DNA of 64,000 nt from Myxococcota bacterium (GTDB lineage: Bacteria; Myxococcota_A; UBA796; CAJQPC01). Positions 50,650 to 63,006 of the stretch are shown here, piece by piece. The translations under genes and the position numbers were made by a program. Below the pieces are notes generated by a model. The model was given only the letters and a program-made list of their open reading frames with translations. It had not been told where the DNA came from and ran no database searches. The DNA is taken from assembly GCA_036229005.1 (NCBI GenBank), contig JAZAMN010000024.1, positions 128,001 through 192,000 of the forward strand. Direction: 5' to 3'. The first letter of the stretch is position 1. Each line of letters starts with the position of its first letter.

Positions 50650-51387
50650 TCAGCGGCCGCCGGCGGAGTGGATCTCGCAGAGCTCGCCTTCGTCCATCCA
50701 GGCGATGCAGGTGACCGGGCAGGCGTCGATGGCGTCCTGGATCAGGTCCATGGGGCCCTCCTGCTTGAGGACCTCGGCCTTGACCTCTTCGCCTTGCTTG
50801 TCGTCTTCGCCCAGGAAGAACACGTCCTCGGTCTGCTCGACGCAGGTGCCGCAGGAGATGCACTCCTCCTGGTCGATGCTCAGCACCTGGCCGGCGGCCT
50901 TGGCCCGGCTGGACTCGTTGTCGACCGGCCCGACGAACTGCACGCCGTCGTCCGCCGTGTTCAGGCCCACCCCAGCGAGCTCCACGTCGTCTCGGCCGTT
51001 GACCCGCATGCGCTCGGCGTAGGCCTCCAGGTCCGTGCCCGACTGGTCGGCGTGGCGCGCCTCTCCGAGCTGTCCGCTGGCCGCCAGAGCCGCCAGTGCC
51101 GCGAACGAGCTCCCACCCGCGGCAGGCTGCGGCGCGGCGGTCTCCGGGGGAGGAGAGGCTGGGGTCCGCTTTGGGGCTGCTTGGCCCACCGTCTGGACCG
51201 GCTCAGGCAGCGACTCCCTCTGTGCACGCTCTCCCCCCGGCGAGGTGCGACTGGGCGCAGCGGGGCTCGGGGCCTTCGCGGCGGAGGGAGCGGGGCGGGG
51301 GCTGGGCTCAGCGGGGGCGGGCTTGCCGGAGGGCTTGCCGCGTCCCAGGAGCTTCCTGCCGATGCGCTTGAGGCCAGAGCGGATCAT
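50650..51387 (-). CDS. Ferredoxin domain with a long Pro/Ala-rich N-terminal extension
   Basis: IDQEECISCGTC...AIDACPVTCI (single-cluster ferredoxin). Confidence 0.8.
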   Translation of the reverse strand: MIRSGLKRIGRKLLGRGKPSGKPAPAEPSPRPAPSAAKAPSPAAPSRTSPGGERAQRESLPEPVQTVGQAAPKRTPASPPPETAAPQPAAGGSSFAALAALAASGQLGEARHADQSGTDLEAYAERMRVNGRDDVELAGVGLNTADDGVQFVGPVDNESSRAKAAGQVLSIDQEECISCGTCVEQTEDVFFLGEDDKQGEEVKAEVLKQEGPMDLIQDAIDACPVTCIAWMDEGELCEIHSAGGR

Positions 51388-51455
51388 GGCGGCCAGTGTA
51401 GCCGGGTCGTCCGCGCTTGGCCCGGATAGAGGACGGTGAACCAAAGGAGGACGTC

Positions 51456-52142
51456 ATGGTGGGGTGGGTACTGGTGGTGGGGTTGGGGAGCGCGCAGGCT
51501 GGCGAGGGCGGGCCCATGCTTGGGATCGGGGCCGGGGTCGGCGGCCCTGGCACGGTGCGGATGCTGAACGGCGGCACCACCGTGTCTGCACCGCCGCTTC
51601 CCTACACGTCCCTGCGCTGGTTCATCGGGTCCAGCTTCATCCTGGAGCCCGACCTGACCTGGCTCCGCAGCTCTGGTTGGCTCGACGAAGAGGACCTGGA
51701 CCGCAGCGCGGATGAGCTCGTCTCAAGCTCGCTGTACTCGGAGCACAGCTACTTGAGCGCTGGCCTGACGGCCAAGTGGCTGCTCCCCGTGGGCGACGAG
51801 CTCGCCGTCTACCCCATGCTGGGGGGCGCTTGGGAGCGAGAGCAGCTGTGGGTGTGGAGCGACTCCGAGCTCCGCTCGGAAGCTGTGGTGACCGAGTCCA
51901 AGGTCGCGTCCGGCTGGATCGTGGGTGGGGGACTGGGGACCATGATCTGGCTGCGCTCCCAGCAGCTGAGCCTCTCAGCAGAGCTCTTCCTGGCGCAGTA
52001 CGGCGCCGTTCAGGTCACCCAGGAGCAGTACCTGCTCGACGATGAGACCGGAGACCGCACCCTGGACAACGTCAAGGACTACGACCTTGACGGGCTGCGG
52101 GTCGCGCCGGACGGTCGCCTGGCCGTCCACCTCTACTTCTGA
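51456..52142 (+). CDS. Outer-membrane beta-barrel protein
   Basis: AAGGAGG RBS; signal peptide ending AQA; ends VHLYF. Confidence 0.7.
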   Translation: MVGWVLVVGLGSAQAGEGGPMLGIGAGVGGPGTVRMLNGGTTVSAPPLPYTSLRWFIGSSFILEPDLTWLRSSGWLDEEDLDRSADELVSSSLYSEHSYLSAGLTAKWLLPVGDELAVYPMLGGAWEREQLWVWSDSELRSEAVVTESKVASGWIVGGGLGTMIWLRSQQLSLSAELFLAQYGAVQVTQEQYLLDDETGDRTLDNVKDYDLDGLRVAPDGRLAVHLYF

Positions 52143-52160
52143 GCCGCCGCAGCACGCAGC

Positions 52161-53816
52161 TCAGCGCGGCCACTGCTCCAGAAAGCGCACGATCCGGTCG
52201 CCCAGCGGGTCCAGGCGCTCGAAGAGCTCGTGGTCTTCGACATCGGACTGCAGGCGCAGGAAGAAGGCCTCCTCCAGCACCAGGGTGCGGCCCACCCGCT
52301 GGGCGATGCCCAAGGCCTCCAGCACCTCGGCGAGCTGCTCTCCGGTGGTCCCGCCGCGGGGACGACGGGTCACCAGCCAGCCCTGCATGGAGCAGAACTC
52401 GTCCAGCAGGAAGAGCAGATCTTCGTAGCGACGGCGCTTGATGCGCAGGTCGATGCGGGTGTTCTGGATGGTGAGCTGGACCTCGGCCCCGCTGCGGCGG
52501 TGCACCTGGAGCAGCGACACGATCATGGCCAGGTGGGGCACGTGGGCCAGGGCCCGCTGGCGCAGGGTCACCCGGTCGGGGATGGCGCGGCTGCGGGGCT
52601 CGCCGGGGTGGAAGATGCCGCCGTGCACCAGCTCTCGGCGGTCCACCGCGCTGGGCAGACCACCCTCCTTGGCCCGCCGCTCTTCCAGCAGGCGGTTCAC
52701 GCCGGTCACCCCGCCGACCAGGTCCTGCAGCGTGGGGGGCAGGGCGATGACCAGGTCGGTCTCCTCGGTCAGCTCCAGGAAGGGGCCGGTGAGCTCGCCG
52801 GGCTCGGGGCCGGGGTCGTCGGCCAGGGGGAAGGCGTCGATGGGGCGGCCCAGGAGCACGCGGTCCAGGTCGGCGGCCAGGCGGGCCGGGGTGACCTCGG
52901 CGCCGAACACGCGTCGATCCCAGCTTCCGTAGCGCTGCTGGAGCTTGGCGTATTGCATCGCCGCGCCCGGGTGCCCATCGGCCGCTTCCTTCAAGACCTC
53001 CAGGTAGTTGCGGTACCCAGGGTCGGAGAGGGCCACGCCCGCGACCGTGTCCGCCAGGTCCCGCCGCCAGACCGCGCCCCAGGAGACCACCAATCGGTCG
53101 CCCACGCGCCAGCCGTCTCCGCGACGCACCGCCATCTCGACATAGGAGCCCACCGGACACTCCTCGCCGCCGTGCCAGTCCAGCAGGGCCCGGACGTGCC
53201 ACAGCGAGAGCTCCCCGTGGTCCAACAGGGCGCGCAGGAGCACCCGGTAGGCCTCGGGGCTGTGCTCCGGGTTGCCGTGGATCTCCAGCTTGGGGGGGCG
53301 ACGCCGCGGCCGACCCAGGCCCAGGTCGAAGCTGAGCTGGTGGCCCTGGTTGGGCTTGCGGGCGGCGGGGTAGCGCATCGCGGGCTCCAGGAGGGCGCGC
53401 ACCGAGGTCGCTCGGCGGCGGGCGGTGCTGGGGGCCATGTCCGGCACGGCCTGTTGGATGTACTGGGCGATCACCCCGCTCTGGGGGAGCTCCGTGCGCC
53501 CCTCCATGAGCTGCACCACGAAGGGGTTCTGCCAGACCGCGCGCGCGTAGACCCGGGGGCGGTCGCGACCGGCGTAGGCGTACTCGGTACCCAGGCGCGT
53601 GAGGGTGGGGTGCAGCGTCTTCTCGTCCGTCGAGAGCAGCCGCAGCCAATCACCGGCCTGGGTGTAGTAGTTGACCGTCCGGACCTCGCAGTCCAGCAGC
53701 ATCGCGAGGCTACGGTTGTCCCGTACGCCGCGGGCGACCAGCTCGACCAGGCGGGCCAGCAGGCGCACGTTGTTCGCGTTGGGGATCAGGTTCTGGCGCG
53801 GGACCCGGGAGCTCAT
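52161..53816 (-). CDS. Hypothetical protein with an N-terminal winged-helix-like domain of the kind seen in restriction-associated proteins
   Basis: IPNANN..L..L...RTVNYYTQAGDWLRLL...LTRLG...STARRRATSV pattern. Confidence 0.65.
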   Translation of the reverse strand: MSSRVPRQNLIPNANNVRLLARLVELVARGVRDNRSLAMLLDCEVRTVNYYTQAGDWLRLLSTDEKTLHPTLTRLGTEYAYAGRDRPRVYARAVWQNPFVVQLMEGRTELPQSGVIAQYIQQAVPDMAPSTARRRATSVRALLEPAMRYPAARKPNQGHQLSFDLGLGRPRRRPPKLEIHGNPEHSPEAYRVLLRALLDHGELSLWHVRALLDWHGGEECPVGSYVEMAVRRGDGWRVGDRLVVSWGAVWRRDLADTVAGVALSDPGYRNYLEVLKEAADGHPGAAMQYAKLQQRYGSWDRRVFGAEVTPARLAADLDRVLLGRPIDAFPLADDPGPEPGELTGPFLELTEETDLVIALPPTLQDLVGGVTGVNRLLEERRAKEGGLPSAVDRRELVHGGIFHPGEPRSRAIPDRVTLRQRALAHVPHLAMIVSLLQVHRRSGAEVQLTIQNTRIDLRIKRRRYEDLLFLLDEFCSMQGWLVTRRPRGGTTGEQLAEVLEALGIAQRVGRTLVLEEAFFLRLQSDVEDHELFERLDPLGDRIVRFLEQWPR

Positions 53817-53867
53817 GGCGCGATCCTATCCCCGTTCGAACCTTCATGTTAGGTGGAAACAAATCCC

Positions 53868-53896
53868 TTGACATGACAAGAGCTTCGACCTAGTGT
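53868..53896 (+). promoter_or_regulatory. Sigma70-type promoter
   Basis: TTGACA-17 bp-TAGTGT in an AT-richer divergent intergenic region. Confidence 0.6.
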
Positions 53897-53940
53897 TTCG
53901 CTGCCGTGGGCGTCTGCAGCGTCCGCTGGCGGAGGAAGTT

Positions 53941-54960
53941 GTGAGCCGATTGGCCAGCCGCTTGGCGCGCAGAATGGAGCTCGAGAAGACAGGTGGCCAG
54001 CGCCAGGCCGCCTCCTTCGACCCCGACCAGCACTTCCTGGAGGCCGCTCTGCGTGGCCGGACCGCCCGCAAGGTGCGCGCCCACCTGCGCCGCCTGGAGC
54101 CCGTCGTCCTGATGACACCGCGGTGGTCCAACCCCCAGACTTTCCTGGAGGAGATCGCCCTGGACCTGGCCGTCGGAGAGCCCGCCGTGGGCTGCCGCAC
54201 CGTGTCCTTCCGGCCTCTCAAGGGTCGCCGCCCGCCCGAGGCCTGGAGCTTCATCCTCCAGGTTCTGGGCCAGCTCCGCAACCGCCGAAACGTCTCCCAC
54301 CCCCCCATCGTCGCCGATGGCCGCGGCTTCCGCTCCGTCGCCTTGGAGCTGCTGCTCCGGGCCCAGGACGAGACCGACCACAACCTGGCTCTGCTGGCCC
54401 ACGGCGCCGAGTACCTGCCCATCGACGTGATCGAGGACCTGGGCGAGGTCTGGGCCACCTACGTCCAGAGGATCCCGCGGGACCGCCGGGCCACAATGTT
54501 GCTCGCTGGCAGCGTCAACGCCGAGCTCGACCAGGGCAACCCCGTGACGCTGGCCGATTACGGGGAGGCTGAAGCGGCTGCTGCGATCTTCGGACGGACG
54601 GGGCCCACCGCTCGGGCTCACCTGGAGACCGCCGCCCGCTTCTCGGGCGGCATCCCCGCAGTGGTTGATGCGCTCGGTCGAGGTGCTCGGGAGCAAGGCG
54701 CGATGCCGCGCAGCCGGGCTGGTCTGGTGCGCGCTCTGGGCCCCCTGGGCGAAGAGATGCGCATGGCCGTGGACATCGTGAAGGCCGACACCGAGCTGGC
54801 TGAGCGCCTGCAGGCGCTGCTGCGCGGTGAGCCCCTGGTCGAGGTCCCGCAGGTCGACAAGCCCCTGATGATGGCGGGCTTGCTGCGTCGCGTGCGCTTG
54901 CCTGGCGAGGACCGCGTCATGCTGCGGGCCCCCGCAATCGGCGAGGTCGCTGGGAGCTGA
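53941..54960 (+). CDS. Hypothetical protein, possibly a degenerate STAND/AAA-like fold
   Basis: GGAGGA RBS with GTG start; FSGGIP resembles the GGxP motif; no intact Walker A. Confidence 0.6.
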   Translation: MSRLASRLARRMELEKTGGQRQAASFDPDQHFLEAALRGRTARKVRAHLRRLEPVVLMTPRWSNPQTFLEEIALDLAVGEPAVGCRTVSFRPLKGRRPPEAWSFILQVLGQLRNRRNVSHPPIVADGRGFRSVALELLLRAQDETDHNLALLAHGAEYLPIDVIEDLGEVWATYVQRIPRDRRATMLLAGSVNAELDQGNPVTLADYGEAEAAAAIFGRTGPTARAHLETAARFSGGIPAVVDALGRGAREQGAMPRSRAGLVRALGPLGEEMRMAVDIVKADTELAERLQALLRGEPLVEVPQVDKPLMMAGLLRRVRLPGEDRVMLRAPAIGEVAGS

Positions 54961-54997
54961 GGGTTCTCCGGGCGAGCCCGGAGCCCCCCGACCGGTC

Positions 54998-55495
54998 TCA
55001 GCCCGAGACCGAGGCGCCGCGCTCACCCTGGACGGTGGCGCTGCCCTTGTTGCCGTCGACGTCGACGACAAAGAGCTCGAAGGTCCACTCGTCCGCCGAG
55101 GTGCAGGGCAGGCTGTAGAGGTTGGCCTGGAAGCTGCCCGTGCAGGTGGCCGCGTCGGGGTCGCAGACCACGATGTCAAAGGCCGTGTCGACGGTCTGGC
55201 CGTCCTGTCCCCAGCTCACGCCGTGCTTGTAGGCCTCGTCCTCCTGGAAGGTGTTCCGGGGGACATCGTTGGGGCCCTGCGGGTCGTCGTAGCTCAGGGA
55301 GAAGCTCCAGAGATCGTAGGGGTTGTCGCCGCCCTCGTCGTGGGTGCGACAGATGGCCTCGAGCTCGCTCAGCTTGGGGCTCACGCCGTCGTCGACGACC
55401 TCCTCTGCGGTGTCGGAGTCGATGGGCTCGTCGTCTCCCTTGCAGGCGGTCAGGAGGACAAGGCCGGTGAAGAGGGCCAGGGGGGTGCTGCGCAT
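54998..55495 (-). CDS. Hypothetical lipoprotein
   Basis: LLTAC lipobox; AAGGAG RBS; YDDPQG..D motif. Confidence 0.75.
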   Translation of the reverse strand: MRSTPLALFTGLVLLTACKGDDEPIDSDTAEEVVDDGVSPKLSELEAICRTHDEGGDNPYDLWSFSLSYDDPQGPNDVPRNTFQEDEAYKHGVSWGQDGQTVDTAFDIVVCDPDAATCTGSFQANLYSLPCTSADEWTFELFVVDVDGNKGSATVQGERGASVSG

Positions 55496-55751
55496 GCGAA
55501 CTCCTTCAGCTCTCTGAAGGGTACCCCACTGGGGCTCGGCTGGCGAAGGCTCTCTGGGCTGGCCTCCGAGCCCAGTGTGTATAGTTGGCGATACATGGTG
55601 AAGGAGTGTGTACAGTGGCGCTGAGAAGCGTGTAATCCTGTAGGTTTGGCGTTCACTGTATTCGGTGATCTACAGGTGTTGATGGTCTTGGTGTAAGCAG
55701 GGGTCGTCAAGCGGTTTGCCGCAAGTGCCTGAAATCACGTTTCCAAAAAGT

Positions 55752-55767
55752 TGGCACAGGTCCTGCA
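55752..55767 (+). promoter_or_regulatory. Sigma54 -24/-12 promoter of the candidate ncRNA
   Basis: TGGCACA-GGTC-CTGCA; predicted TSS about 55778. Confidence 0.7.
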
Positions 55768-55779
55768 ATCTCTTTCTCC

Positions 55780-57345
55780 GACACCCGGCACAGTCCGGAG
55801 GTCAACCGAGAAAAACGCTCGGCACGTTCTTTGACGTTGACATCGCTGATTGTAGACGGCCGCTGGCCACCTCCTGTCGGAGGGACCTGAACTGGAAACA
55901 GAGCAGGGACAAAGTCAGCGCCTTGGGACAGACTCCTCGGAGTGGAAGACCCAAGGGGCCAACCCCGCAAGGCCAGGGCGACCTGGACGAGCGACGGAAG
56001 GCCGGAATCCAAAGCCTCCCTCGGGAGTGCGGAGGACCCAGCCGGAGCTCTTCGGAGCGAAAGGCGCGCTGCAGTCAGACAAACAAGCCCATGGAAGAAT
56101 CGAGCGGACCTTGGTCGGAAACGGCAAAGGGACGCAACGGACTCTCCCAGCGGAGCAAAGCCTTGGAGCCGCGAGAGCAGACCCCCTCGGGGGAACGCTC
56201 AGGACACAAGCCGGAGACGGCGGGTGTCCAAGTCGCCCAGACAGGACGGGAAACCAGCCTGACACGGCGGCGGGAACGGCAAGAGGGAAGCGCGGGTGCG
56301 GTGACGCATCGGCGGCTGCTGGAGAGGGAAAGTCTTTGAAGGGTCAGCGCTGCGGAAGCGCCAGGGACCGAGGCACCGAAAGGTGGGTCGGCAAGGGAGC
56401 CTCCTTTTGGGGGTGAACGGAACTGGAGCGGGAACGCAGCGAACCTCATGACCGGTAGCAGGATGCAACAAGCCTGCAGACCAGATGCTGATGCCGCCAA
56501 GGAGCTGAGAAAGCTCAAGGCAGCGCGAGCCCGACCTGGCAAGGAAGGGACAAAGCATGGACGAGCGACGCGGAGCCAGCGATGGCGAAGCGGAGCGGCA
56601 GTCGGAGACGGCTGTTGGGGTCGGAATGGCGTCGAGGCCACCCGGCACACACCCAAGACCATGTGGGAGCAGGCATCGCTGGAGAGAAGCCGACTGGAGA
56701 CAGTCTGAGGACAGCCAGCTTGGGTCCAGGAGAGACGGAGTCTGGAGAGCGCGCAGGCAGCGGAGTCGGCAACGACTCAGGCGCAGCGTGAACAAAGGCA
56801 CCGAACAGCCAGGACCGACGGTGACATCGGTGGAGAGGCGGAGAAACCCTCGGAGGAGGAGCAGGCGAGAGCGGACGACAGGACGCACTCACAGGCAAGC
56901 GAAAGAAAGGTCCTCGGACCCGGAGAGCGCCGGCTGCCGGCTCAGGAAACTTGGAAGAGTCTCCAAAGGAGGCGCCCAAGGACAGAAGGACGCAGCATCT
57001 TCGGATGCACAGCGGACTGCGAGAGAGACCTTGAAGGTCCCACCGAATCAACGCGAATCAAACCGCGTCGGTGAAGGCCAGGAAGGGACGCGGGAAAGGC
57101 CAACGACCCGCATCGCAGCCCAGGAAGGACAGCAGCAATGCTGGACGGCGACCTTGAGGTTCAGGCGAACCCCACAGCAGGCGTGACGCGGCGACGCGTT
57201 GAGCGCCAAGGTTCCCGTATCCTCCAAGAGGAACCCTCCCTGGGCTGGGTGTCACCTCTCCTTCAACTGCAAGGAGAGGAAGGCAGCAGACCTTGCTGCC
57301 AACCAAGACCCCGAACCGCTTTGCGCGGTTCGGGGTCTTGTCGTT
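55780..57345 (+). ncRNA. Candidate large (~1.5 kb) structured non-coding RNA of unknown class
   Basis: No ORF with host codon bias; at least 16 GNRA/UUCG/CUCG-capped hairpins on the + strand; terminal helix 55780-55789 with 57244-57253; promoter upstream and terminator downstream. Confidence 0.75.
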
Positions 57346-57347
57346 TC
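57304..57347 (+). terminator. Rho-independent terminator
   Basis: 16-bp perfect stem CAAGACCCCGAACCGC / GCGGTTCGGGGTCTTG followed by TCGTTTC. Confidence 0.85.
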
Positions 57348-57399
57348 GGGGCCCACCGCTCCGCCACCGCAGTGCAAACCCACCCCGACCCCCAGAGCA

Positions 57400-57428
57400 C
57401 AAACGAGGACACCCTCAGGATGTCCTCG
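57400..57428 (-). terminator. Possible terminator of the E1 gene
   Basis: CGAGGACA / TGTCCTCG stem followed by TTTG on the minus strand. Confidence 0.45.
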
Positions 57429-57477
57429 CTTGCGGATCGGGTGCACAGGTGTGCGGGGGCCCAGGACCCTGGGCGGT

Positions 57478-59649
<2,172 letters not shown>

Positions 59650-59704
59650 CGAGTCTCCTCGGGAGAGTTTGGGGACCAAGGGGTATCACGCCCGGCGCGG
59701 GGAT

Positions 59705-60937
59705 TCAGATGACCATCGCCTCGGCGCTGCGGAACTCGCGATCGATCTGGAAGACCCCGAGGCTGGCCTGCTCGCCGAGGACGGTGACATGGTCGATTGA
59801 ACGCCCGGCTTCAGCCAGGGCGGTGCAGACCTTGGCGGAGAAGGGGCCGAACATCGCGCCGTGTCCGGAGAAGCCCACCAGCCGGATCAGGTTCCGGGTG
59901 TTGGGGTCGAAGTCCATGAAGGGGTTGTGGTCGGGGGTGGTCCCGTAGAACCCGGCCGTGGTGGCGGAGATCCCCTTGAACTCGCCGACGGGGGGCAGGA
60001 CCTCGGCCAGGGCCATCCAGGTCTCGAAGGGGCGCGCGTCGGCCCCGGAGCGGTGGAAGAACTCGGGCTGCACGGAGTCCTGGTCTTCGTAGGAGAAGTC
60101 GGCGGACTGGTCGGGCGCCGCGTGCTTCCACCCGATCATCAGCGAGCCCGCGTTCTCGGGGCGGCAGTAGGCCCCCGACGGCGAGATCACCAGGGGCATG
60201 GACAGGAGCTGCTCGGCGCTCATGGCCTGGTCGTCGCGCTCCAGGAACCACAGGTAGCGCTTGAGGGCGGCCACGGGCAGCGCCTTGGCCCCCAGGATGT
60301 CACCGAGGCGCCGGCTCCAGGCGTTCGTGCAGTCCACGAACAGGTCGGCCGACAGGGTCTCGCCCTTGGCCGTGGTGACGCTCAGCAGGCGGTCACCTGC
60401 GCGCTCCGCCGAGACCACAGCGCTGTTCATCTTGAGGGTGCCGCCCCGCTGACGGAGCCCCTGGGCGGCCTCGTTGTAGAGCACCTCGGGCCTCAAGAAG
60501 CCATCGCTCGGGCACCAGGTCGCCCCCCCGATGCTCTCCGGGTCCACCCAGGAGAAGCGGCTCTGGACCTGCTCGGGGCTGAGGGCCTCCACCTCCTTCA
60601 ACCCCCAGGCCCTTTGACTCTCCACGCGGATCCGGGCGCCAGCGAGGACATCGGGGGCGTTGGGCAGCAGGAAGAGGTAGCCATTGGACTGGATGGGCCG
60701 GCCCTCGCCGCCGGTGCGCGCCTGCCAGTCGTTGTAGAAGTCCACGGCGTAGCGCATCCCCAGCACCGTCTCGCGCGTGGTGAACTGCTGCCGAAAGCCC
60801 GCCGCGGTGCGCGAGCTGGAGCCGGCGCCCAGGTGCTGGGCCTCGAGCAGGGTGACCGCCCAGCCCTGGTCCTGGAGCTGCAGCGCAGTGAGCGTGCCTG
60901 TGATGCCAGCACCGATGACGATCGCCGAACGAGCCAT
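59705..60937 (-). CDS. FAD-dependent oxidoreductase (DAO / sarcosine oxidase beta family)
   Basis: VIGAGITG, GSSSRTAAG, GFYGTTPDHNP, GFSGHG. Confidence 0.88.
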   Translation of the reverse strand: MARSAIVIGAGITGTLTALQLQDQGWAVTLLEAQHLGAGSSSRTAAGFRQQFTTRETVLGMRYAVDFYNDWQARTGGEGRPIQSNGYLFLLPNAPDVLAGARIRVESQRAWGLKEVEALSPEQVQSRFSWVDPESIGGATWCPSDGFLRPEVLYNEAAQGLRQRGGTLKMNSAVVSAERAGDRLLSVTTAKGETLSADLFVDCTNAWSRRLGDILGAKALPVAALKRYLWFLERDDQAMSAEQLLSMPLVISPSGAYCRPENAGSLMIGWKHAAPDQSADFSYEDQDSVQPEFFHRSGADARPFETWMALAEVLPPVGEFKGISATTAGFYGTTPDHNPFMDFDPNTRNLIRLVGFSGHGAMFGPFSAKVCTALAEAGRSIDHVTVLGEQASLGVFQIDREFRSAEAMVI

Positions 60938-61040
60938 TGAGGACCTCTGCTTTCGCAGAGCCTATCCAACCGCGCTCGCCGGGAATGTCAGAAGGCCCTG
61001 ACGGGTGGTAGCTTGGTCGGAATCCTGTGGAGGTCCCCCC

Positions 61041-61613
61041 ATGCTTGCCCTGCTTCTCCCCGCGCTCCTGGCTGCTCCCGCTGGCTGGGAGAGCTTCGAC
61101 AGCGGCGGCGGCTGCACCTACTTCAAGAGCCCCAAGCACGCCTCCGGCTACCCCACCCTGCGGGCGGAGTGCACCTGGTCGGACGTGACCCCGGCGCAGC
61201 TCGACGCCCTGCTCTCGGACCTGGAGGGCCACGACGAGATCCACAGCAGCATCGCGGAGGCCAAGGTCGTGGGGACCACCACCAGCGGCACCAAGGTGTA
61301 CCAGCGCCACGTGGCCTCGGGGATCTCCGACCGAGAGGCCAACATGGAGTACACCCGCGCGGTCTCCGGGGACACCATCACCCACGCGTGGTCCATGACC
61401 GCGGACCAGCCCACCCCGGCCGCCGGGAACGAAGCCCCCGCCCACAACTCCGGCAAGTGGGAGCTCAGCCCGGACGGCGCCGGCACCAAGGTGGTCTATG
61501 AGCTGCGCTACGAGCCCGGAGGCAGCGTCCCGGGCTTTGTGGTCCGCGCCTTCCAGACCAGCGGCTTTGTCCTGATTGTCCAGGAGCTCCACAAGGCGGG
61601 CCTGGCAGGCTGA
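61041..61613 (+). CDS. Secreted START/SRPBCC domain protein
   Basis: ISDRE, GKWEL, TKVVYELRYEPGGSVPGFVV. Confidence 0.75.
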   Translation: MLALLLPALLAAPAGWESFDSGGGCTYFKSPKHASGYPTLRAECTWSDVTPAQLDALLSDLEGHDEIHSSIAEAKVVGTTTSGTKVYQRHVASGISDREANMEYTRAVSGDTITHAWSMTADQPTPAAGNEAPAHNSGKWELSPDGAGTKVVYELRYEPGGSVPGFVVRAFQTSGFVLIVQELHKAGLAG

Positions 61614-61680
61614 CACCCACCGGGCCGCGGGACGCTCCGAGGGCCCCCTCCCGGCGACTGGGCCCCTCGGAGCGCAGCCC

Positions 61681-62271
61681 TCAGTAGGCCATCAGCTCGT
61701 CGACGATGTCGTCCGGCCAGGTGCGCTTGCCGTCCAGCCAGGTGGGCTCCTCGCCGTCCAGGTCAAAGAACAAGGGCTCGCTGCCGTCGACGTCGAACCA
61801 GGTGGGCTGCTCCCCGTCGATGTCGAAGAACTCGGGCTCCGTTCCGTCGATGTCGAAGGCCACGATGCTCCCGGCCTTGTCGCCATCGGGGGTGTAGAGC
61901 AGCAGGTCGCCATCCACGGCGGTGCGCCAGATCTCCACGTGCTCCTGGCTGGCGAACACGGCGAAGCCGTCCCCGTCGATGCCGCCCTGCAGGTCACACT
62001 GCCAGTCGGAGGCACCCTTGTTGGAGAGCCAGTGGCTCTGGCTGTCCGAGAGCCAGTGGGTCTGGCTGTTGGACTTGCACACGCCCTTGAGCTTGCCGGT
62101 GTCGGTGTAGAAGCCCAGCACGGCGTCGGTGGCGCTGCCCTCCTTGGCGACGTCCAGCATCACCGTCACGCGCAGGTCCGCGGAGTATTCGGCCGCGGCC
62201 GCCATGGTGGCGGCCATGCTCAGGCCAAAGGAGACGGCGAAGAGGGCCAGGGTGGACTTGGACATGGACAC
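61681..62271 (-). CDS. Secreted protein with C-terminal 10-aa FDxDGxxP repeats
   Basis: AGGAGG RBS; signal peptide; FDIDGTEPEF-FDIDGEQPTW-FDVDGSEPLF-FDLDGEEPTW. Confidence 0.75.
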   Translation of the reverse strand: MSMSKSTLALFAVSFGLSMAATMAAAAEYSADLRVTVMLDVAKEGSATDAVLGFYTDTGKLKGVCKSNSQTHWLSDSQSHWLSNKGASDWQCDLQGGIDGDGFAVFASQEHVEIWRTAVDGDLLLYTPDGDKAGSIVAFDIDGTEPEFFDIDGEQPTWFDVDGSEPLFFDLDGEEPTWLDGKRTWPDDIVDELMAY

Positions 62272-62352
62272 GGAGACCTCCTGTTCTTGGGTCTCCGCAA
62301 AGCTATGGCTGGGCCCCCTGGCGGTCCTGTCCCAGCTTGTCCCAGGCCGCGC

Positions 62353-62967
62353 CTACTCCTGGGGCAGGGCCTCGTCCGCCACCACGTCGATGCCCACGCC
62401 GACCACCTGGGCCAGCTCCTGCGCCTTCTTCTTGAGGTTCAGCTCCTTGCTGTCCTCGTAGACCAGGCGCCGGCCGTCCTTGAGCTCCAGCACGATGGCC
62501 GAGCAGAGCGCGTCCCCCTGGACCCGGCCCTCGTACTGCACCCCCGCGACCTCGCGGAAGCCGATCTCCAGGCGCTCGGGCTCCTCGATGCCCTTGTGGT
62601 GCACGTCGATCTTGATGAGCTCCCGGCCCCCCGCGAGCTGCGTGTAGGCGGTCTGGTCGGGATCGCAGATCTTGAGGACCGCGGGCGGCTCCGGGATGGT
62701 CAGCGCCCCCGGCAGGGTCGCGCTCTGTCCGTCGGGGTTCGCCACGATCACGGTGTGGGCGCCAGCGGCCAGCTCGGGCACGGTGCCCACAAGCTGCACG
62801 GCCCCCTTGAACTCCACGGCCAGATCCTGCCCACCCGCGGTGGCGGTCGCGCCCTGCTGGAAGTCGGCGCCGATCAGCGTCAGGCTGTCGCCGGGCTTGG
62901 CCGTGCCGGGATCCACGGCGCTGAGGGTGGGGGGAGCTGCGGTACAAGCCAGCAACAGAGCGAACAT
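62353..62967 (-). CDS. IPT/TIG-domain lipoprotein
   Basis: MFALLLAC; PTLSAVDP..G..LTLIGADF, VIVANPDG. Confidence 0.8.
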   Translation of the reverse strand: MFALLLACTAAPPTLSAVDPGTAKPGDSLTLIGADFQQGATATAGGQDLAVEFKGAVQLVGTVPELAAGAHTVIVANPDGQSATLPGALTIPEPPAVLKICDPDQTAYTQLAGGRELIKIDVHHKGIEEPERLEIGFREVAGVQYEGRVQGDALCSAIVLELKDGRRLVYEDSKELNLKKKAQELAQVVGVGIDVVADEALPQE

Positions 62968-63006
62968 GAGGCCTCCAAGGCACAAACATAGCGAATAGGG
63001 GATCCC

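Follow-up and report, generated by a model that had tools for sequence, protein, structure and literature searches.

Positions 55780..57345 of the 64,000-nucleotide stretch of Myxococcota DNA that we analyzed (hereafter the window) almost certainly encode a real structured non-coding RNA about the size of 16S rRNA, and the family to which this element belongs is a class of very large bacterial RNAs that has not been catalogued. We place the primary transcript on the + strand at 55778..57346 (~1,570 nt), on the evidence of RNA contigs that cover 55804-57228 and of similarity to a paralog that extends from promoter to terminator; within it, the closed body spans 55780-57253 (+ strand, ~1,475 nt). 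The element lies between a divergent upstream gene (54998..55495, − strand) for a 165-residue protein with a lipoprotein-like N-terminus and no Pfam family, and a convergent downstream gene (57478..59679, − strand) for a 733-residue fused E1 alpha/beta 2-oxo-acid dehydrogenase identified by Pfam, both outside the RNA. A first-pass annotation made from the sequence alone had proposed a stand-alone RNA of ~1.5 kb, and this reading stands: the element is transcribed, non-coding and covarying, has a conserved sigma54 promoter and matches nothing in Rfam. The annotation had named a missing transcript, a conserved reading frame or shuffle-level hairpin counts as evidence against itself; instead, RNA contigs were found, no frame is conserved and hairpins exceed those in shuffled sequence. 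Beyond what it described, we find a boxA, a closing helix, a paralog, a repeated internal-loop module, T-loops and a phylum-wide family of 0.8-3.3 kb.

Transcription, non-coding character and control signals

All 16 stem-loops originally listed are present on the + strand where they had been placed, and the outer helices 55921/55950 and 56202/56224 occur both in the sequence and in predicted folds. The description of the loops as canonical tetraloops holds in part: every hairpin exists, but 4 of the 16 are capped by CUCG rather than UNCG. The + strand carries 18 four-pair GNRA/YUCG hairpins, against 1.50±1.20 (maximum 5) in 300 dinucleotide shuffles, and the − strand carries 0; among 16,168 genome segments of the same size, the top four counts are those of the element and its paralog. 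Most of the listed hairpins sit on variable peripheral arms, outside the conserved core. Folding z-scores of the element are −4.5 and −6.5 (20 shuffles each). The host's GC3 pattern is absent, as had been claimed, with G+C by codon phase of 0.62/0.64/0.66 compared with 0.64/0.43/0.97 in the adjoining dehydrogenase gene, and the purine-rich look of the + strand corresponds to an AT skew of +0.4 to +0.5 across the element. Comparison of the window with the paralog reveals 50 indels, 1 of which is a multiple of three, and substitutions distributed 117/106/116 by phase; no conserved reading frame was found in this pair or in seven others.

Fourteen RNA runs contain the element's stretch. In four runs from four studies, all selected for containing the element and one only guessed to be RNA, the RNA contigs on 51000-62999 cover just 55804-57228 (four bins), a mapping that gives neither strand, ends nor level; the bare flanking genes provide no expression ranking, and runs with a word share <0.2 were left out. 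Word depth over the element reaches thousands in one RNA run, and the paralog appears to be expressed as well, because loose contig ends match it. Among 80 environmental contigs (79 from a metagenome pattern search plus locus L135), 39 contain boxA, and 36 of these 39 start 14-67 nt before it without a promoter; in genomic copies, the promoter lies 72-127 nt before boxA. Starting near boxA and lacking the promoter, these contigs have the appearance of full-length transcripts, 1-2.5 kb long, recovered by assembly. Samples in which the family is expressed come from marine water, invertebrate guts and mangroves. Strain variants in the RNA contigs, placed on the single-sequence minimum-free-energy fold, leave 7 pairs kept and 5 broken, with 9 variants unpaired, on a fold that disagrees with the covariation model.

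The sigma54 promoter that had been proposed is found as TGGCAC-N6-TGCA (−24/−12) at 55752..55767 on the + strand, with a predicted start at ~55778-55780. A sigma54 site followed by a boxA-like motif occurs in 40 of 52 loci, 47 of which have at least 700 nt of upstream DNA available; the promoter core columns are 95-100% conserved, and the family consensus is GTTGGCACG-N4-TGCA. Upstream in 20 of these 40 promoters, often twice, lies a palindrome, TGGGAA-N6-TTCCCA (GGGA-N8-TCCC), that is likely to be an activator site; it is absent from the window. In the window's lineage, TGTA/TACA-rich repeats lie upstream in its place. Thirty nucleotides upstream of the sigma54 site, a motif at 55722..55734 (no strand assigned) resembles an IHF site; it recurs at −30/−31 in 9 of the 40 promoters. 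Palindrome, IHF-like site and sigma54 site are together arranged as in sigma54 promoters that depend on an enhancer. DnaA-box-like motifs also occur upstream of the sigma54 site in 8 of the 40 loci. Among distant members, some have sigma70-like promoters and some lack boxA.

Downstream of the start, a boxB-like hairpin (55806..55822, + strand), which may take part in antitermination, directly precedes the boxA-like antitermination signal GTTCTTTGACG (55826..55836, + strand), found in 44 of 52 loci. This motif resembles one that precedes 16S by 82 nt in both rrn leaders (2/2) of the host genome; among 12 rrn leaders of other carriers, 6 have a boxA-like motif and 6 have no boxA within 450 nt. 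It also resembles the B. subtilis boxA AUGAUCUUUGAAA, described as binding NusB (PMC13753749). A nusB gene scored over the cut-off in 30 of 31 genomes and was not found in the host genome (94% complete), which yielded only an RsmB-like NusB domain; the missing gene is probably an assembly gap. The 5′ strand of the closing helix (55780..55788, + strand) pairs with the 3′ strand (57245..57253, + strand) as an inverted repeat with covariation z up to 7.5, and boxA lies 3′ of the 5′ strand and hence inside the closed body. This is the weakest helix of the model, with 4 compensatory events against 23 breaks and few held-out cells. The 3′ trailer (57255..57346, + strand) contains two hairpins and a terminator-like hairpin at 57304-57340. 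The claim of a terminator survives as far as this hairpin, a perfect one of 16 bp, but its U-tail is broken and a strict terminator scan does not return it; a similar hairpin occurs in 38 of 52 loci.

The location of boxA inside the closed body, together with a divergent upstream rho gene that shares the control region in 8 loci (L032, L033, L035, L059, L083, L084, L088 and L101), would suit an RNA that regulates Rho action or the synthesis of rRNA, in which boxA within the closed mature RNA titrates NusB-S10 and tunes antitermination under a sigma54 signal. We regard such a role as very unlikely. A single boxA does not account for 1.4 kb of conserved fold, some members have no boxA, nusB was not found in the host, and the eight rho-adjacent loci belong to related lineages.

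A covarying multi-domain fold with repeated modules

Homologs and covariation had been recommended as a check, and relatives collected in Myxococcota do contain long-range helices that covary. Our alignment holds 39 members drawn from 52 loci (7 truncated or promoter-less loci and short-flank loci were removed, 4 loci were added, and 1 near-duplicate and 6 loci longer than 2.1 kb were left out); 137 columns are at least 90% identical and 75 at least 97%. In these 39 sequences, covariation supports helices that are nested and bridge distances of up to 1,470 nt. A tree-based count over 93 pairs gives 201 compensatory events and 191 breaks, compared with 9.5±3.3 events for matched random column pairs, for helices chosen on the same alignment. 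In a held-out set of 18 contigs, those of the 80 that passed a boxA/length/type filter and were not used for helix discovery, pairing in the long-range helices stands at 88.2% and both-side changes number 92, whereas slid partners give 37-48% and 13-26. For 14 core pairs in all 80 sequences, 99.4% of positions are paired, with 253 both-side cells versus 74 in shuffles, on an alignment fitted to the model. No pseudoknot or kissing-loop covariation appears among the top helices, all of which are nested, in a set of 39 sequences that is perhaps too small for tertiary pairs.

The extent of this fold bears on whether the transcript could be a long precursor from which small regulatory RNAs are cleaved, in the manner of Pxr, a myxobacterial sRNA of the sigma54 type. 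The sigma54 promoter would fit such a precursor, and processing might take place at the rRNA-like closing stem, but helices spanning 100-1,470 nt covary and the environmental contigs of 1-2.5 kb extend over the whole body, making processing of this kind extremely unlikely.

The body consists of a central junction, a variable 5′ domain and three further domains, all on the + strand. The 5′ domain (55837..56082), with arms capped by GNRA, CUCG and UUCG loops, is poorly conserved and ranges from ~250 to >1,500 nt among homologs. Domain I (56085..56343) is closed by M1 (56088-56098 x 56333-56343) and contains M2 (56161-56171 x 56277-56287) and a covarying helix (56142-56153 x 56316-56326), with support from covariation z up to 13, compensatory events and the held-out test. 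A linker arm with a variable tip (56353..56441) includes the top covarying pair, 56356-56438 (z 15). Domain II (56441..56838), the universal core, is closed by M3 (56444-56456 x 56826-56838) and carries a T-loop hairpin (56458-56477, loop UGCAA at 56464-56468) and the arm M4 (56493-56524, T-loop UGAGA at 56506-56510). In the window's lineage, the M4 loop is 3x2 and the junction lacks the AGNAA motif; columns of the M4 3′ strand covary, and the window's row is misaligned there (56537-56548), its true arm being 56493-56524. Domain III (56843..57231), supported by covariation, compensatory events and the held-out test, is closed by M8 (56847-56849 x 57229-57231) and contains M7, M6 (56974-56982 x 57159-57166), M5 (57030-57040 x 57076-57086) and a hairpin at 57090-57111.

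Each of the three domains begins with RAA-CCY, and the module that closes it consists of two helices flanking a 3x3 purine loop, either GRA/AnG or GAG/GAG. The modules number ~8, five tallied on the alignment and three read from covariation and sequence, and the same A.A<->G.G switch occurs at three separate internal loops. The domain II model also matches the other domains weakly, all 20 of its 20 secondary hits at E<=0.1 falling on the RNA strand. These matches suggest growth by domain duplication, although base composition may contribute to the secondary hits.

Two T-loop-like loops of Domain II are present in 73 and 72 of 80 sequences, and the held-out contigs show A.G<->G.A and U.A<->G.G switches within them. 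An AGNAA motif occupies the adjoining junction in 62 of the 80. These features could indicate an RNA that binds the tRNA elbow through its T-loops. The T-loop module's core is described as AG..A plus UG..A (PMC3664808), and an interlocking pair needs one loop of each type, whereas both loops here are of the UG..A type. In addition, neither the window's Domain II nor that of its paralog has AGNAA, there is no tRNA gene in the window, and T-loops are frequent in unrelated RNAs. We therefore consider elbow binding improbable.

Family range, copy number and neighborhood

The host genome contains a second copy, whose 73% identity extends from promoter through terminator, and core models find no third (exactly 2). 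A suspected third copy, G000:C4:43654-44000, proved to be a sigma54-like site followed by ~31-bp tandem repeats rather than a paralog. A BLAST-type search returned a match in 19 of 61 relatives. When species genomes were scanned with a pattern, 46 loci were obtained, of which 25 are labeled Myxococcota or Deltaproteobacteria and the rest have generic or other labels, so that the phylum name of the family rests on those 25. A 139-position core model has matches in 74 of 150 genomes from the order and, among phylum genomes with a completeness of at least 95%, in 41 of 150, each carrier genome having 1-6 copies; whole families among the genomes searched gave no core-model match (f14, 0/11; f18, 0/15; f25, 0/10; f31, 0/8). 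At least 121 metagenome stretches were retrieved by a second pattern. Judged by these sequence matches, the family is common in mostly uncultured myxobacteria.

Thirty-two complete loci measure 1,180-2,716 nt, and about 1.2-2.7 kb is typical of the order. The longest member, L101, reaches ~3.3 kb (read by eye) and has large insertions and short internal direct repeats (L101 4100-6300); distant members are shorter, the stretch from boxA to terminator in L284 being 826 nt. In three genomes (L063, L278 and L279), tandem copies of the RNA gene lie 1.6-3.6 kb apart.

Neighbors of the RNA are varied housekeeping genes, and an E1 dehydrogenase gene lies downstream in 11 loci. Across distant lineages, no partner gene is found repeatedly next to the RNA, in a scan of 125 neighbors of which 52 have no Pfam family. 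A divergent pair at 52161-54960 of the window, encoding proteins of 551 residues (weak DUF7226 match) and 355 residues (no family), is found near the RNA in several relatives. Two candidate protein links were also absent: TROVE, the Y RNA/Ro60 partner, does not track the RNA (22 of 150 genomes of the order, none in the host, and 0 of 6 genomes in genus g14, where the RNA is present in 6 of 6), and encapsulin was not found in the host genome.

Multiple copies, a patchy distribution and many differing chromosomal neighborhoods are features that a selfish or mobile RNA element, such as a degenerate intron, a HEARO-like element or a retro-copied RNA, would share. Nevertheless, no reverse transcriptase, transposase, integrase or phage gene is named among the 125 neighbor proteins (68 + 57; 52 of them, 26 + 26, without a family), and reverse transcriptase (RVT_1) was not found in the host genome (94% complete). 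The paralogs keep an untranscribed promoter that retro-copying would lose, synteny is kept across families, and the RNA has no match in 50,697 phage records or in plasmid records. Such an origin, already disfavored, is very improbable. Two loci from a viral collection, L102 (1562-4934) and L135 (1227-3941), had raised the prospect of phage carriage, the RNA being joined there to RNA-virus polymerase and coat ORFs; they are most likely chimeric metatranscriptome assemblies, and chimeras of this type could mislead virus catalogs.

Relation to known RNAs and candidate functions

The annotation had raised the possibility of an undescribed class, and neither the window nor its homologs have a match in Rfam. 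The recommended search gave 0 matches at the gathering score in the window, where Rfam 15 returned only 9 hits at E<=10, all at noise level (15-21 bits), and 0 matches on 20 genomic homolog loci and 20 transcript-like contigs (E<=0.5-1). HEARO and MISL belong to Rfam. The 224 motifs of Weinberg 2017 were compared only through Rfam. No description of the giant RNA was found in the literature outside subscription journals that was covered.

Several known RNAs offer partial parallels. OLE is an RNA of ~600 nt from Bacillota with Oap proteins. Like OLE, the present RNA is chromosomal, regulated, large and structured, with its biochemistry unassigned, but it shows no match to OLE and no linked oapA-like gene, occurs in another phylum and is multi-copy. 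CsrB, CrcZ and Pxr are RNAs of 0.1-0.4 kb with single-stranded repeats, and CrcZ and Pxr are under sigma54 control. A repeated motif, trans action and sigma54 control (CrcZ and Pxr; for Pxr, PMC8538405) are shared with that group; here, by contrast, the repeats are internal loops within a covarying multi-domain fold. The leader of the rRNA operon, as described in PMC13753749 and 10.1101/091223, resembles our element in having a hairpin and boxA near the 5′ end, an end-closing helix and a long untranslated product, whereas the product here is not rRNA (no Rfam rRNA match) and the promoter in most members is of the sigma54 type.

GOLLD and ROOL are similar in style, unrelated, and up to four times shorter. 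Many GOLLD members exceed 800 nt and form an RNA-only nanocage (PMC12286853), and GOLLD (>800 nt) is named as the largest ornate class (PMC5737381, PMC12286853). Our RNA is likewise large, ornate and stand-alone, with no assigned function or known protein partner; unlike GOLLD, the family is chromosomal, not found in phages or beside tRNAs, 1.2-2.7 kb long, under sigma54 control and built from repeated modules. ROOL averages 581 nt and has three pseudoknots (PMC5737381, PMC12286853), and PMC12286853 reports no known protein partner. Both ROOL and our RNA are large, multi-junction and patchy among relatives, and ours looks abundant, as ROOL is, but it has no sequence or model match to ROOL, is two to five times longer, and shows neither a pseudoknot nor a phage or tRNA context.

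Large bacterial RNAs are described as often catalytic (PMC5737381), and a ribozyme or metabolite-binding RNA, with an active core in Domain II and other domains as stabilizing expansions, would be consistent with the occurrence of Domain II in every member found, including those of 0.8 kb, and with many near-invariant purines. Members were found by the domain II model, however, so that this universality arises partly by construction, and the invariant positions lie mostly in repeated modules. The RNA has no Rfam match to RNase P RNA, and the host genome already has a separate one on another contig (227 bits); there is likewise no Rfam match to a group I or II intron, and the element is intergenic with its own promoter. 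Overall, we think a catalytic or ligand-binding core unlikely.

The explanation that we prefer, and hold at even confidence, is a multivalent, stoichiometric scaffold or sink RNA that is regulated, abundant and untranslated, acts by shape and amount, and probably binds itself as GOLLD and ROOL do. The sigma54 promoter, with the activator-like and IHF-like sites found beside it, would switch the gene on under some signal. Next, the boxA motif could load an rRNA-type Nus complex, permitting 1-3 kb to be made without ribosomes. The 5′ and 3′ ends pair, through the weakest helix of the model, and would thereby protect a stable body, from whose central junction three related domains radiate; as covariation indicates, these share an A-rich linker and the 3x3 purine loop (GRA/AnG) in ~8 modules and include two conserved T-loops. 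Finally, the repeated modules could be docking sites, both for tertiary or self contacts and for a cellular partner bound in several copies; the RNA would then control how much of this partner is free.

A scaffold or sink is consistent with a dosage-like pattern of 1-6 copies, tandem copies, lengths of 0.8-3.3 kb and whole-clade gaps, and with the absence of a recurring neighbor partner, as reported for ROOL in PMC12286853. By contrast, the 75 columns at least 97% identical would also suit a catalytic or ligand-binding core, and there is no kissing-loop or pseudoknot covariation, unlike in the ROOL and GOLLD cages, which are described as relying on such contacts (PMC12286853, PMC5737381). Against the boxA step stand the missing host nusB, distant members without boxA, and the 6 of 12 rrn leaders that have no boxA within 450 nt. 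A more ambitious extension of the scaffold reading, which we advance only tentatively and on balance doubt, is an rRNA-sized RNA machine, pseudo-symmetric and internally triplicated, made by rRNA antitermination under enhancer-dependent control and assembling into a cage or ribonucleoprotein with an undescribed housekeeping-scale function, for example storing tRNA or a translation or transcription factor.

More broadly, bacterial orphan RNAs longer than ~0.9 kb are not catalogued, and this family, at 1.2-1.8 kb for typical members in the order and up to ~3.3 kb, is chromosomal rather than phage-borne. It has a deep alignment with long-range covariation and allows a direct test of whether self-assembly is the rule among giant RNAs. 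Since many large RNAs whose conserved cores are complex have proved to be enzymes or core machines, the family makes a strong target for cryo-EM and biochemistry. It may also provide a natural case of an RNA enlarged by domain duplication, a 3x3 loop motif whose repeats invite structural work, and another instance of rRNA-type antitermination in use. If the tentative model of an RNA machine were true, such a machine would be present in a quarter to a half of the genomes of these myxobacterial groups.
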